Sequence record: OQ540978.1
DNA length: 64,000 nt
DNA from: Escherichia phage pEC-N1203-2Af.1
Strand: one strand, 5' to 3'
Part shown: in pieces, positions 24,947 through 41,564 of the stretch
How positions within the stretch are numbered: position 1 is the stretch's first letter
How the letters are laid out: each line of letters begins with the position of its first letter
Translations under genes and position numbers: made by a program
Notes under the pieces: model-generated
What the model saw: the letters and a program-made list of their open reading frames with translations, nothing else
Databases searched by the model: none
What the model was told of the DNA's origin: nothing

Positions 24947-25699
24947 TTATACACGAGAAGTACGAATACCATAAATATCAGGCAGGCTGCTCTGAAGTCG
25001 AGTCATGTTATTCGGAATTGCGATAGGTGAACCTGAGTACTCTTGCTTCTTATTCTGCTCTACCATTTCATCAAGGATAGCTTTTCCTAATGCTGACCAT
25101 TTCTGAACTCCATTATCATCTTGAACAAACAAGCAAGCATGACGTAGAGTGAAATACAGAAGAAGTTCTGGTGCAATAGTAAGGATAGCACTGGTATCTG
25201 TATCTTCATGGAACTCCGGTGGGTCTGCATAATAACTAAGAATGACTGAGTTTTCTGCTGGAATCAAAGGACTTCCATCATCAGGATAAACAGGAGTATC
25301 TGCTTCAATGCTAGGGTAGAAAATGAAACGACTACCGAAACGAGCAAAGTTAACAGGTTGGTTATTCCAGTGAGATGGGTTAATTGTTCCATGCTGTCTA
25401 CGATAGCTAATCTCTTCAGGAGATGTTACTTGGAAGATTGTACCATCTTTGGCTCTCATCATCCATTGAGCTTCTAAGTAATCAGGAGGAATGTAAGCTA
25501 CTCCATCTTTAATATCTAAATACACTTCTTTTTCCAGAGGAGGAATACGTAAGTTACGATAAATCTCTTTCTCTGCAAAGTTAATAAAGTTTGGAATTTG
25601 ATTAACAAATTCGTCATCGTCCCTATCTGCCCAGAGGGCCACGGCCTTCTTTAGCCACCCATAGGTATTGATGGGGTATTGAACATCTGGCATCGCCAT
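24947..25699 (-). CDS. Virion protein (possible head-tail adaptor / tail tubular protein)
   Basis: ORF 250 aa between capsid and fibre genes; TAATGTATA motif upstream. Confidence 0.4.
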   Translation of the reverse strand: MAMPDVQYPINTYGWLKKAVALWADRDDDEFVNQIPNFINFAEKEIYRNLRIPPLEKEVYLDIKDGVAYIPPDYLEAQWMMRAKDGTIFQVTSPEEISYRRQHGTINPSHWNNQPVNFARFGSRFIFYPSIEADTPVYPDDGSPLIPAENSVILSYYADPPEFHEDTDTSAILTIAPELLLYFTLRHACLFVQDDNGVQKWSALGKAILDEMVEQNKKQEYSGSPIAIPNNMTRLQSSLPDIYGIRTSRV

Positions 25700-25763: not shown

Positions 25764-25792
25764 AAAACAAGAAAAGCCACCCGAAGGCAGCT
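25764..25792 (-). terminator. Rho-independent terminator (UUCG tetraloop) after capsid/Ig-like genes
   Basis: Minus-strand AGCUGCC-UUCG-GGUGGCU (G-U wobbles) followed by UUUUCUUGUUUU. Confidence 0.6.
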
Positions 25793-25798
25793 TTAGTT

Positions 25799-26347
25799 TT
25801 AGGCTTTGGGGGTAACACCTGTGAATTCACAAGTGGCTGTTACAAGAGGTTTAGTCTTGTGTGTAGCTGCAACAGAGACTGTACCAGTAGCAGCATCAGC
25901 AAGAGTCAAAAGACCAGCTGCACTGACAGTACCTGCTTCAGTAGGGGTTACAACAAAATCATAATCACTACCAGCAGAATTGGTTACAGTAAACATTGTA
26001 GAGAAGGCAGTAGTAGAACCACCGACTTTACCAGCAATAGGACCACGACTTACAATTGTAGGTTCAGGGTCAGCAATAGCTGAGATCGTAGATGTACCGG
26101 ATTTACCACCTTTAGTAGCTTTCACTGTAATCGGGGTTTCTTGCGACGCACTCGGTGCAGTGTACAGTCCAGAAACAGAAATAGCCCCACCACCCTCAAC
26201 GGACCAAACAAATCCAGTTGTTGATGTGGAGCTATCACTCATTTGTGCTGTAGCTGTAAACTGCTGAGTAGCCCCCGTCGGAAGGCTTGCAACCGACGAA
26301 GGACTAACAGTTATGGTATCTACTGTTACGCCGCCACCGCCTTTCCC
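25799..26347 (-). CDS. Ig-like (BIG2-type) capsid extension/decoration; probably the -1 frameshift C-terminal extension of the major capsid protein
   Basis: ORF 25799-26242 is open upstream in the same frame through the capsid stop to the slippery site; product reads GKGGGGVTVDTITVSPSSVASLPTGATQQFTATAQMSDSST..., Thr/Ser/Gly/Val-rich Ig-like pattern. Confidence 0.5.
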   Translation of the reverse strand, partial: GKGGGGVTVDTITVSPSSVASLPTGATQQFTATAQMSDSSTSTTGFVWSVEGGGAISVSGLYTAPSASQETPITVKATKGGKSGTSTISAIADPEPTIVSRGPIAGKVGGSTTAFSTMFTVTNSAGSDYDFVVTPTEAGTVSAAGLLTLADAATGTVSVAATHKTKPLVTATCEFTGVTPKA

Positions 26348-27387
26348 GCAGCAGTGAACAGAACGCCGGAAGCATACGGGTTGCGGTGACGCAGACCAAC
26401 TTCCATCTCAATCATCCACTTCTCGTAAGAACCATCTTTCGCCAGTTCAGTACGTTTCGGAGCACGCAGAACCATCTGGGTCCAGTCAGCGCTACGGAAG
26501 AAGTAAACTGCATCGGTAGGCATCCAACGGTTAACGATGATTTTGTAGCTCTGGCCCAGCGGGTCAGTGATGCTGTTAACTTCGTAGATGAACTGCTTGG
26601 TGTTCTCAAAGATACGCTTACGTGAACCCTGAGTATTTTCTTGCAGACCAGCGAAGATCTTAGCATGAGCCGGGTTAATCATGATGATATCTGCTTCAGA
26701 ACCAGCGGTGTAAAGTTGCAGAGTCATATCAAAGATATCTGCTTCATCAAAACCGATGTTAGTAGCCGGGTTAGAAGCGTTCTGTGCAACTTTAACAGTG
26801 ATTGCACCGGTATCTGGGTCAGCAGGACCATTCTTGGTTTTGTCAACAACGCCACCAGCCAGACCGCCGTGAGCACACAGGAACTGGAAAGCACCAGTCT
26901 TACGAGCTGCATGGGTGTCGTTCTTACCGATCTGAGCCGGATCAGCGGCAGAGTTAGTCAGATACTGGTCAGCCAGAACGTCGGTACGAGCCTGACCGGA
27001 CAGAAGGATTTTCTCGAGGTCACGCTTGATCTCTTTACCTTTCTTCTCCAGCTGATACATCAGTTCACGACCACGACCGTAGTTAGCGGTGGTGTTAGCA
27101 GTGTCAGAAACACGAACAACCTTACGCAGAATCTGAGTAACGTTAGACTTGATAACAGTCGGTTTCATTTCGCCGTCTTCAGCACGAGAGCCTTCGACGT
27201 GTGCGTTATTACCATCAACGCTTGCCAGTGCATCGGTCTGCCAGCTAAAGATAGTCTGGTTGATAGACTCTTTACCGGTCATAGATACGAACGGAGTATC
27301 CTGAGGGGACAGAACAGAAATCCAGTTAGCAAAAGAAAGTTTTTTACCATTCTGGTCATACGATACAAATAAAGTTGGATTAGCCAT
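26326..27387 (-). CDS. Major capsid protein
   Basis: ORF 353 aa located after scaffold gene and before Ig-like extension; strong RBS; position/size typical of HK97-fold capsid proteins. Confidence 0.65.
   Translation of the reverse strand: MANPTLFVSYDQNGKKLSFANWISVLSPQDTPFVSMTGKESINQTIFSWQTDALASVDGNNAHVEGSRAEDGEMKPTVIKSNVTQILRKVVRVSDTANTTANYGRGRELMYQLEKKGKEIKRDLEKILLSGQARTDVLADQYLTNSAADPAQIGKNDTHAARKTGAFQFLCAHGGLAGGVVDKTKNGPADPDTGAITVKVAQNASNPATNIGFDEADIFDMTLQLYTAGSEADIIMINPAHAKIFAGLQENTQGSRKRIFENTKQFIYEVNSITDPLGQSYKIIVNRWMPTDAVYFFRSADWTQMVLRAPKRTELAKDGSYEKWMIEMEVGLRHRNPYASGVLFTAAGKAVAA
26341..26347 (-). other. Candidate -1 programmed ribosomal frameshift slippery heptamer G_GGA_AAG
   Basis: mRNA GGGAAAG 7 codons before capsid stop; -1 frame opens into the Ig-like ORF; same heptamer as the lambda G-T shift site. 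Confidence 0.5.
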
Positions 27388-27428
27388 GTTATGTTAGCTC
27401 CTATACTATTAAATAATTAATTTGTCGA

Positions 27429-41196: not shown

Positions 41197-41224
41197 GCCC
41201 CGGCTACGGCTGGGGCTTTTTTAT
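41197..41224 (+). terminator. Rho-independent terminator (UACG tetraloop)
   Basis: GCCCCGGC-UACG-GCUGGGGC followed by UUUUUUAU. Confidence 0.6.
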
Positions 41225-41246
41225 ATCTATTGTATAGGAATTTTCT

Positions 41247-41564
41247 ATGAAAAACCCATTCGAGCTGATAAGTACAGATCCTGTAGAGGTCAACATGCTT
41301 TCATTGAAGTCCAAACTGGTCATCATTCTTACGAAGCTAATTCGTGAGCAGGGTTGGTCGCAGTGTGTTGCCGCAGAGAAGCTAGGTGTTAGCCAGCCAA
41401 GGATTAGTAACCTTATGAATGGACAGCTTTCAAAGTTCTCCGTCGATACATTGTTGGAAATGGTTTTCAAGATGGGGTATAAGCTGGACATGGACTTCAC
41501 TCCACTAAACACCAGATCGCCACTGGCAATATTTGTAAAAGGTGATGGTGTAAGTTACAAATAG
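41247..41564 (+). CDS. XRE-family helix-turn-helix DNA-binding protein
   Basis: ORF 105 aa; GWSQCVAAEKLGVSQPRISNLMNG is a classic XRE/HigA-type HTH. Confidence 0.6.
   Translation: MKNPFELISTDPVEVNMLSLKSKLVIILTKLIREQGWSQCVAAEKLGVSQPRISNLMNGQLSKFSVDTLLEMVFKMGYKLDMDFTPLNTRSPLAIFVKGDGVSYK

Follow-up and report, generated by a model that had tools for sequence, protein, structure and literature searches.

Near its 3′ end, the major capsid protein gene in the window (the whole stretch of 64,000 nucleotides analyzed here) very probably carries the −1 programmed ribosomal frameshift site known from Kuravirus (phiEco32-like) capsid genes, which is predicted to give rise to a minor fusion of the capsid protein with Ig-like domains. 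Such a capsid-Ig frameshift is already published and annotated for phiEco32-like Kuravirus and is not new. A preliminary description of this DNA, made from the sequence alone, had proposed a minor capsid-Ig fusion formed by a −1 shift; this proposal is supported, and all that a −1 programmed frameshift of this kind predicts at the level of the sequence was observed. The features involved are the following:

27398..27402, minus strand: Shine-Dalgarno sequence AGGAG of the capsid gene, in the upstream sequence (anti-Shine-Dalgarno duplex −6.5 kcal/mol)
27387..26326, minus strand: major capsid protein gene, frame 0, 353 amino acids and stop, HK97-fold, SU10_MCP family
26347..26341, minus strand: slippery heptamer G_GGA_AAG, assigned by position and register, codons Ala347-Gly348-Lys349
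25799..26341, minus strand: −1 frame extension, 180 codons and stop, read only after the shift, with G26341 being read twice
26330..26341, minus strand: Gly4 linker (GGC GGT GGC GGC), overlapping the frame-0 tail AVAA
26305..26328, minus strand: alternative weak hairpin H1 (TAACAGT/ACTGTTA), 12 nt after the heptamer, including the capsid stop codon
26259..26312, minus strand: conserved extended stem-loop of ~54 nt with an apical helix at 26277..26297 (RNAalifold)
26084..26323, minus strand: Ig-like domain 1 (Big_2), extension residues 7–86
26242..26240, minus strand: internal Met codon chosen by ORF callers as the start of a 147-aa "Ig domain protein"
25811..26059, minus strand: divergent Ig-like domain 2, extension residues 95–177, no Pfam match
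25773..25794, minus strand: terminator-like hairpin and T-run, directly 3′ of the extension stop

The identity of the capsid gene is clear from its match to the Pfam family SU10_MCP (PF17236; E 1.2e-76, residues 12–344) and to the SU10 major head protein in the PDB (7z45; E 5e-232), as well as from the gene order portal-scaffold-MCP-adaptor-fibre, which is syntenic with phiEco32, NJ01 and SU10. The window belongs to Kuravirus, with a nucleotide identity over this region of 98.9% to Escherichia phage NJ01 and of 88% to phiEco32. The AGGAG in front of the gene is the sole ribosome binding site and serves both the short and the long capsid product. In frame 0 the protein ends with ...FTAAGKAVAA*, and the GGGAAAG is found 19 nt ahead of the stop, at the distance of seven codons that the preliminary description had stated. 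Its first G occupies the third position of codon 347, which places the heptamer in the register G_GGA_AAG, a sequence listed as highly prone to shifting in E. coli (PMC5009743). Its location near the capsid stop, followed by an Ig-like −1 extension, agrees with the account in PMC9965538 and with the GenBank note for Paul. By itself this heptamer is not rare, with nine copies on both strands of the window compared to about eight expected. Yet, ORFs of 100 aa or more in the window contain 26 X_XXY_YYZ heptamers in register, and among these the capsid gene is the only real gene in which a long −1 ORF (180 codons) continues past the stop. An A_AAA_AAG with a long −1 ORF (41204..41512, minus strand) was rejected, as the ORF that contains it is spurious and runs antisense to an HTH gene. 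Readthrough of the stop codon was also excluded, as the sequence reads UAA CAG UAG.

A shift after K349 generates the junction ...TAAGK/GGGGVTVD..., and translation reproduces exactly the junction that had been predicted beforehand. The claim that the −1 frame is open from exactly the heptamer to 25799 holds only for its downstream part: the frame is indeed open through 25799, but it already lacks stops 20 codons ahead of the heptamer. Likewise, the anticipated Gly linker followed by an Ig-like domain turned out to be a GGGG linker followed by two Ig-like domains instead of one. The predicted fusion, consisting of capsid residues 1–349, GGGG and the two domains, comprises 529 aa with a mass of 55.9 kDa, compared to 38.7 kDa for the unshifted protein. 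As trypsin cleaves at the junction residue K349, detection of a junction peptide requires another protease; the predicted chymotryptic junction peptide is TAAGKGGGGVTVDTITVSPSSVASL. When the first 93 residues of the extension were scanned alone, domain 1 matched Pfam Big_2 (PF02368) with 25.9 bits (gathering score 22.8), whereas within the full 529-aa fusion the match reached 19.8 bits and was thus below the gathering threshold. An AlphaFold2 model of the extension (pLDDT 95.8) exhibits two all-beta domains, and the best Foldseek match of this model is the tandem Big_2 of LigA (E 5.5e-11), with other tandem Ig proteins matching as well. The Big_2 domain of the phi29 capsid shares 31% identity with the extension (Foldseek; phmmer E 1e-3). 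For domain 2, no Pfam family was found in the scan of the extension. It aligns with the second Big_2-like repeat in distant homologs, and its assignment as a probable Ig-like domain is based on the model and the structural matches. A terminator is annotated in the SU10 and Paul records at the site after the extension that is equivalent to the hairpin and T-run found here.

The Ig-like ORF could alternatively be a separate gene that is translated from ATG 26242 or from a non-canonical start codon close to the capsid stop, with its product serving as a free decoration protein or as a minor capsid protein. This is how most GenBank records, including NJ01, 172-1, phiEco32, SU7, LAMP and others, annotate it, namely with a separate "Ig domain protein" CDS, and in the cryo-EM paper on SU10, gp10 is considered as a potential minor capsid protein of its own (PMC9509320). 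The ORF listing for the window, as noted earlier, likewise contains only the 147-aa ORF from ATG 26242. The features of this start codon, however, make a separate gene highly improbable. ATG 26242 encodes extension residue 34 and lacks a Shine-Dalgarno sequence (duplex +1.2 kcal/mol, in contrast to −6.2 to −11.4 kcal/mol for six neighbouring genes), and it is not conserved, with other clades having AAA, CTA or AAG in its place. The Big_2 domain begins 7 residues past the shift site and 27 residues ahead of this only ATG, so that a start there would delete strands E7-13, E25-27 and E29-34 of domain 1 in the AlphaFold2 model; the 147-aa ORF alone does not match any Pfam family. Between the upstream stop and 26242 the −1 frame does not contain any ATG, GTG or TTG, and the GTG start of phiEco32 gp12 corresponds to ATA in the window. 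Moreover, the N-termini of homologs of the Ig-like ORF are inconsistent among gene callers, and different records annotate different starts. ATG 26242 is not a credible start.

The capsid-Ig frameshift is further supported by a comparison of 40 Kuravirus-like loci (34 unique sequences, capsid proteins 92–99% identical). All 40 loci retain GGGAAAG and its register, and the −1 extension is intact in 39 of them with a length of 178 to 545 codons; SU10 alone has a broken −1 ORF. Within the 34 unique sequences, the three synonymous positions of GCG-GGA-AAG are all invariant, whereas eight of ten upstream wobble positions vary, meaning that the heptamer is conserved beyond what the protein sequence requires. 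At the heptamer, the codon-position variability moves from frame 0 to frame −1. The stretch between the capsid stop and the ATG shows coding constraint in frame −1, with 19 of 27 third positions of this frame being variable, compared to 7 of 27 and 5 of 28 for the other two positions; this stretch without a start codon is under frame −1 purifying selection. The linker length differs among relatives by 3-nt indels, and in many of them the domain cassettes have been expanded, up to an extension of 545 codons, rather than lost. The extension is missing from the relatives Vp_R1 and L014, and in Salmonella phage 7-11 the second capsid gene is an in-frame MCP-Ig fusion.

Neither a transcriptional slippage, i.e., stuttering of the RNA polymerase, nor a frameshift introduced by sequencing or assembly has any appreciable probability of accounting for this arrangement in place of ribosomal slippage. 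Nothing specific favors transcriptional slippage beyond the short G3 and A3 runs of the site; these homopolymer runs are only 3 nt long, while productive transcriptional slippage requires longer ones (reviewed in PMC5009743), and the heptamer is in the exact register for tandem slippage. An error of sequencing or assembly is contradicted by the recurrence of the same capsid/−1 frame arrangement in over 40 genomes and metagenome contigs that were sequenced independently of each other.

The same GGGAAAG-dependent capsid-Ig frameshift has been described for phiEco32, SU10, Privateer and YF01, and the YF01 paper regards it as general to the group (PMC9965538). Joined coding sequences are present in GenBank for YF01 and for Paul, where a note reads "Frameshift at GGGAAAG". 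Virion proteomics published for close relatives includes both capsid species (PMC4281155; PMC7881722), the fusion having been reported for phiEco32, SU10 and Privateer by SDS-PAGE or mass spectrometry. For SU10, slippage at GGGAAAG with forms of 38.5 and 55.4 kDa was reported by mass spectrometry (PMC4281155), and a statement in the Privateer paper mentions both capsid species for phiEco32 and SU10 (PMC7881722). The cryo-EM analysis of SU10 exhibited neither Ig density nor a larger band (PMC9509320; PMC9965538), which is explained by the −1 ORF of SU10 being broken. The reported SU10 form of 55.4 kDa conflicts with the deposited SU10 sequence.

SU10 also bears on the idea that the shift does occur, but that its product, an accessory that can be dispensed with or is in decay, is not stably present in virions, leaving the capsid effectively uniform. 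SU10 builds normal heads without the extension (PMC9509320; PMC9965538), which is thus not required for heads to assemble, and the absence of the extension from Vp_R1 and L014 points in the same direction. Against such a decaying accessory stand the 39 of 40 intact loci with their frame −1 purifying selection and expanded cassettes, the fusion that was reported in virions of phiEco32 and Privateer (PMC7881722), and the in-frame long capsid protein that phage 7-11 has kept. Altogether, this idea appears very unlikely for the phage studied here.

In the frameshift model, most ribosomes would read G_GGA_AAG in frame, add AVAA and terminate, releasing the HK97-fold capsid protein of 353 aa. On a smaller share of ribosomes, the tRNA-Gly in the P site (from GGA to GGG) and the tRNA-Lys in the A site (from AAG to AAA) would slip back together by one base, upon which the −1 frame would be translated through the GGGG linker and the two tandem Big_2-type Ig-like domains. 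The resulting 529-aa fusion would co-assemble as a minor species into the prolate head, with the Ig domains outside. By analogy with the proteomics of phiEco32, SU10 and Privateer, the fusion is probably made and present in virions. With frameshift ratios being ~3.5% for lambda G-T and ~10% for T7 (PMC9965538), it may account for a few percent, corresponding to tens of copies among ~715 subunits. Comparison with the known systems further suggests that the Ig domains might be located outside and mediate weak adhesion to surfaces or glycans, or stabilization.

As had been suggested beforehand, the RNA downstream of the heptamer was inspected for a stimulatory structure. A conserved covarying stem-loop does exist, but it begins 30 nt 3′ of the heptamer in the window and 27–30 nt overall, and the nearer hairpin H1 is weak and without covariation. 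In the stem-loop 99.3% of cells are paired and one position exhibits three pair types; the wobble test yielded p=0.002 and ensemble probabilities range from 0.85 to 1.0. Despite this covariation support it is too distant for a classical stimulator. A canonical stimulator structure 5–9 nt downstream of the heptamer was not found, and no Shine-Dalgarno-like element was seen by eye in the sequence upstream of it. Single-sequence folding of the 91 nt downstream is unremarkable on its own (z = −1.64). H1 shares its 3′ arm (ACUGUU) with the long stem, and the two structures are mutually exclusive. Its spacer is 9–12 nt among the loci and its arms are nearly invariant, with six of seven pairs never varying. 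H1 cannot be regarded as the stimulator, as it shows no covariation and its equilibrium probability is ~0 except in SU10. The only structure proposed in the literature is the stem-loop CTGCTGC-GGGAAAG-GCGGCGG of the SU10 paper, which has the heptamer in its loop (PMC4281155) and differs from the conserved ~54-nt stem-loop. As a conserved stimulator it was rejected: its 3′ arm varies freely and is missing from LAMP/Bas93 (TTGGATCCG), and the stem-loop would already have been melted by a ribosome in the act of decoding the heptamer. The conserved ~54-nt stem-loop is possibly the only new item here. Together with H1 it might, tentatively, be a hitherto undescribed cis-element which tunes the capsid/capsid-Ig ratio through kinetic or alternative folding from 27–30 nt away, or which influences how stable the capsid mRNA is or how it is processed.

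The closest counterparts, phiEco32 gp11-gp12, SU10 gp9+10, Paul CPT_Paul_010 and YF01 gp8, share the same gene, heptamer, −1 frame, Gly-rich linker and first Big_2 domain, and Kuravirus relatives in general have GGGAAAG 16–22 nt ahead of the capsid stop. Only the linker (GGGG here, GSGG in NJ01, GGG in phiEco32) and the number of Ig modules (two here and in phiEco32, about five to six, judged by extension length, in Paul and YF01) differ, while the mechanism is the same. The preliminary description had drawn parallels to lambda G-T and T7 10A/10B, and identical ones have been made in the literature (PMC9965538). Lambda G/G-T uses an identical G_GGA_AAG, shifts in the −1 direction at a low fixed ratio and has no strong adjacent stimulator known (PMC3496638; PMC5009743; PMC9965538). 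There, however, the product is a tail assembly chaperone with the fusion being absent from virions, whereas here a structural capsid variant is predicted; the gene is a podovirus major capsid gene and does not belong to a gene pair upstream of the tape measure, the location of lambda-type tail chaperones. In T7 10A/10B and T3 gene 10, a −1 shift near the end of a podovirus capsid gene likewise leads to a minor, co-assembling longer protein, and the T3 gene 10 extension is Ig-like as well (PMC5009743; PMC9965538). Nevertheless, T7 and T3 have an unrelated slippery site and another capsid protein lineage, and T7 has a short extension that is not Ig-like. Phage phi29 gp8, an HK97-fold capsid protein of a prolate podovirus, carries its C-terminal BIG2 domain in-frame, so that every copy has the domain, and 7-11 gp009, a homologous capsid protein with an in-frame Ig array, obtains its long form from a duplicated gene. 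In contrast to both, a single gene here is predicted to yield the two forms, with the frameshift setting a sub-stoichiometric ratio. The joining of Ig-like domains to phage structural proteins by frameshifting was described by Fraser et al. (2006; cited in PMC9965538 and PMC5009743), and passages in the two citing papers outline a general pattern of Big_2, I-set or FN3 domains on capsid or tail proteins, often added by a C-terminal −1 or +1 shift. The capsid-Ig case does not differ from this pattern and is a textbook example of it.

For annotation, this means that a joined ribosomal-slippage CDS, complement join 27387..26341, 26341..25799, should be placed beside the short form and that a 147-aa "Ig domain protein" should no longer be called. 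The wrong separate-gene annotation persists in most public records of Kuravirus, among them those of the nearest relatives NJ01 and 172-1. Regarding frameshifting itself nothing new is learned; the site very probably represents another example of Ig-like domains being displayed in sub-stoichiometric amounts on a phage head. Its relevance lies in the adherence of phages to mucus and glycans and in the use of the capsid C-terminus for display.

The preliminary description had placed a slippery G_GGA_AAG at the end of the major capsid protein (MCP) gene, and both position and register were found as described. The features of this region are:

27387..26326, minus strand: MCP ORF, 353 aa (Pfam SU10_MCP, E 1.2e-76)
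26347..26341, minus strand: slippery heptamer GGGAAAG, its first G being the third base of codon 347
26312..26259, minus strand: predicted extended stem-loop (columns 67-120 of alignment A1; RNAalifold, 34 sequences), apical helix 26297..26277
25773..25794, minus strand: terminator-like hairpin and T-run immediately 3′ of the extension stop, where SU10 and Paul also annotate one

Residues 1-350 of the MCP match the structure of the SU10 major head protein (7z45, E 5e-232), and its C-terminus reads ...F-T-A-A-G-K-A-V-A-A-stop. The heptamer lies in the MCP frame as G_GGA_AAG, with the MCP stop 19 nt downstream. The -1 frame is indeed open to the stop ending at 25799, but not from exactly the heptamer, as it is already open 20 codons 5′ of it. 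A -1 shift after Lys349 is predicted to yield a product of 529 aa and 55.9 kDa (unshifted MCP: 38.7 kDa) with the junction ...TAAGK/GGGGVTVD.... For the extension region, ORF listing returned only a 147-aa ORF starting at an internal Met, ATG 26242, in agreement with the ORF track described earlier. The initial observation is thus confirmed in every material respect. The MCP gene and its extension appear to close a transcription unit ahead of the adaptor gene (25699..24947).

GGGAAAG alone is not rare, with nine copies observed on both strands of the window versus ~8 expected; its context is what counts. Among the 26 in-register X_XXY_YYZ heptamers in window ORFs of at least 100 aa, the usual -1 read-out is 5-30 codons, and two lead into long -1 ORFs past the stop: the MCP site (180 codons) and one A_AAA_AAG. 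The latter (41204..41512, minus strand), with a -1 ORF of 121 codons, was rejected as a second frameshift candidate. It is a false positive in a spurious ORF, on the strand opposite a 105-aa HTH (XRE-like) gene (41247..41564, plus strand) and adjoined by a terminator-like hairpin.

The genomes nearest to this region are NJ01 and 172-1 (98.9% identity), with phiEco32 and SU10 at ~88%; by its sequence, the phage is a member of the genus Kuravirus, Gordonclarkvirinae. The GenBank record of NJ01 (JX867715; locus L004, 1614-2675) carries no CDS over the MCP gene. Gene order is as in the compared relatives (portal, small ORF, scaffold, MCP, Ig ORF, adaptor, fibre). For the comparison, IMG/VR, metagenomes and GenBank phages supplied 52 related loci, 40 of them Kuravirus-like (34 unique sequences, MCP identity 92-99%). 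All 40 contain an in-register GGGAAAG 16-22 nt 5′ of the MCP stop, and all but SU10 (11 codons) a -1 extension of 178-545 codons. In the alignment of the 34 unique sequences around the heptamer (A1), GCTGCGGGAAAGG is essentially invariant, with variable synonymous sites adjacent to it. Variable columns 5′ of the heptamer occupy 8/10 of the frame-0 third positions versus 1/10 and 0/10 of the others; from the MCP stop to the ATG the figures are 19/27 for the frame -1 third positions versus 7/27 and 5/28. This move of third-position variability from frame 0 to -1 means that the selected reading frame switches at the heptamer, and the start-less stretch 5′ of ATG 26242 is probably translated.

The -1 ORF had been read as a Gly linker plus one Ig-like domain. 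Its Ig fold was borne out by Pfam, AlphaFold2 and Foldseek, but the predicted number of domains is two. The first 93 extension residues alone match Pfam Big_2 (residues 7-79; 25.9 bits vs a gathering score of 22.8), scoring 19.8 bits inside the whole 529-aa fusion. An AlphaFold2 model of the extension (23 homologs, mean pLDDT 95.8) folds into two domains, both all-beta (residues 7-86 and 95-177), for which Foldseek ranks the Leptospira LigA tandem Big_2 pair first (E 5.5e-11). Further matches include many other tandem-Ig proteins and the phi29 capsid Big_2 domain (31% identity), which a sequence search with the extension found as well.

NJ01, 172-1 and most other Kuravirus records annotate, with inconsistent starts, a separate Ig gene. 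That the Ig ORF is expressed from a start of its own is very improbable, as the searched -1 frame 5′ of 26242 holds no ATG, GTG or TTG. ATG 26242 lacks a Shine-Dalgarno sequence (anti-SD duplex +1.2 kcal/mol vs -6.2 to -11.4 for six neighbouring genes), and its equivalent in other clades of A1 is AAA, CTA or AAG. Annotators and gene callers place the start differently from record to record, and the GTG used for phiEco32 is ATA in the window. The 147-aa ORF scanned alone gave no Pfam match. In the model, strands E7-13, E25-27 and E29-34 of domain 1 lie at or before this Met (extension residue 34), so that an ATG-initiated product would be unable to form domain 1.

Conservation, frame switch, absence of starts and Ig fold instead argue strongly for the reading originally proposed, and tandem -1 ribosomal slippage yielding a minor capsid-Ig fusion is very likely. 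In classical tandem slippage, tRNA-Gly and tRNA-Lys would slip back together on G_GGA_AAG, so that MCP-GGGG-Ig-Ig would be made as a small share of fixed size and co-assemble with the 353-aa MCP. The likeness to the lambda G-T shift drawn at the outset agrees with the literature: the lambda site works with the identical heptamer, which is among the most shift-prone in E. coli (PMC5009743). From frameshift efficiencies of ~3.5% in lambda and ~10% in T7 (PMC9965538) and 715 MCP copies in the SU10 head (PMC9509320), tens of fusion copies per head would be expected.

The capsid-Ig frameshift is correct and already known. The SU10 paper describes slippage at GGGAAAG and reports forms of 38.5 and 55.4 kDa by MS (PMC4281155); the Privateer paper describes the same signal and both capsid species in phiEco32 and SU10 (PMC7881722), and the YF01 paper extends the frameshift to the whole Kuravirus-like group (PMC9965538). 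In GenBank, Paul has a joined CDS with the note 'Frameshift at GGGAAAG; Frameshift in PhiEco32 major capsid protein product as well (PMID: 18294652)', and the YF01 capsid is joined likewise. Ig-like domains added to phage structural proteins via frameshifting have been reviewed (PMC5009743). Being published and annotated, the finding is not novel; its annotation value remains, because so many records give a separate Ig gene.

The sole modestly new lead is the conserved stem-loop downstream of the heptamer. Across A1, 99.3% of cells over its 18 pairs are paired; one pair occurs in three Watson-Crick types (UA 14, GC 13, AU 5), a second alternates between GC and UG, and all one-sided changes keep pairing. 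Columns 49-121 hold 14 stem sites that are third positions of frame -1, nine of them invariant and the other five varying only pair-preservingly, versus 0/10 invariant among the unpaired ones (Fisher p = 0.002, for related sequences and a model from the same alignment). Helix ensemble probabilities are mostly 0.85-1.0, and single-sequence folding z-scores only -1.6 to -2.3. A downstream stimulatory structure had been suggested as a check; this stem-loop starts 27-30 nt from the heptamer, too distant for stimulation of the classical kind. Closer in, after a spacer of 9-12 nt, lies the hairpin TAACAGT/ACTGTTA, whose 3′ arm is also part of the long stem; since it hardly varies, A1 gives no covariation signal for it, and it is thermodynamically negligible. 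The SU10 paper proposes a stem-loop that has the heptamer as part of its loop, and this one is not kept in LAMP/Bas93. The role of stimulator is thus assigned to none of the three.

Compared with phiEco32, SU10 (KM044272; L003 2669-2693, equivalent to window 26328..26305) carries three clustered changes, G>C, +C and G>T. Through them an inverted repeat with imperfect arms becomes a perfect 11-bp palindrome, TAACAGTAGAC-ACT-GTCTACTGTTA, and the -1 frame acquires a TAG 11 codons past the shift site; the event looks like a quasi-palindrome template-switch mutation. This TAG would account for the Ig density missing from SU10 cryo-EM (PMC9509320), yet it is at odds with the 55.4 kDa form (PMC4281155).

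Among loci L018-L043, whose MCPs are >92% identical, extensions measure 178, 180, 264, 351, 370, 372, 437, 443, 457, 459 and 541-545 codons, a spread suggesting gain and loss of Ig-domain cassettes 3′ of a constant first domain. In Bas86 (L040 3515-4027), an HNH endonuclease gene sits between Ig extension and adaptor gene; such an insert was found neither in the window nor in the other relatives examined.

Vp_R1 and locus L014 show no extension at the MCP end. In Proteus phage P59 (L049, Privateer-like), G_GGA_AAG abuts UAA and the -1 ORF of 168 codons looks like an I-set-type Ig domain. LAh_9-like Aeromonas phages (L010-L013, L051) have a non-canonical G_GUA_AAG at the MCP end, which in L010 precedes, by 6 nt, a structure of high stability (-48 kcal/mol, z = -5.0), and locus L015 has A_AAA_AAG there. 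By sequence, the Ig domains of these distant relatives (P59, the LAh_9-like phages and L015) look to be of a different, I-set-like type. Salmonella phage 7-11 (L050 1482-4258) encodes two tandem MCP paralogs, gp008 of 312 aa and gp009 of 585 aa, and the C-terminus of gp009 carries an array of Ig-like domains in frame; capsid forms of both lengths would there come from gene duplication in place of frameshifting. The arrangements in P59, the LAh_9-like phages, L015 and 7-11 indicate that a two-isoform capsid is a recurring solution in this lineage, apparently reached by several routes.
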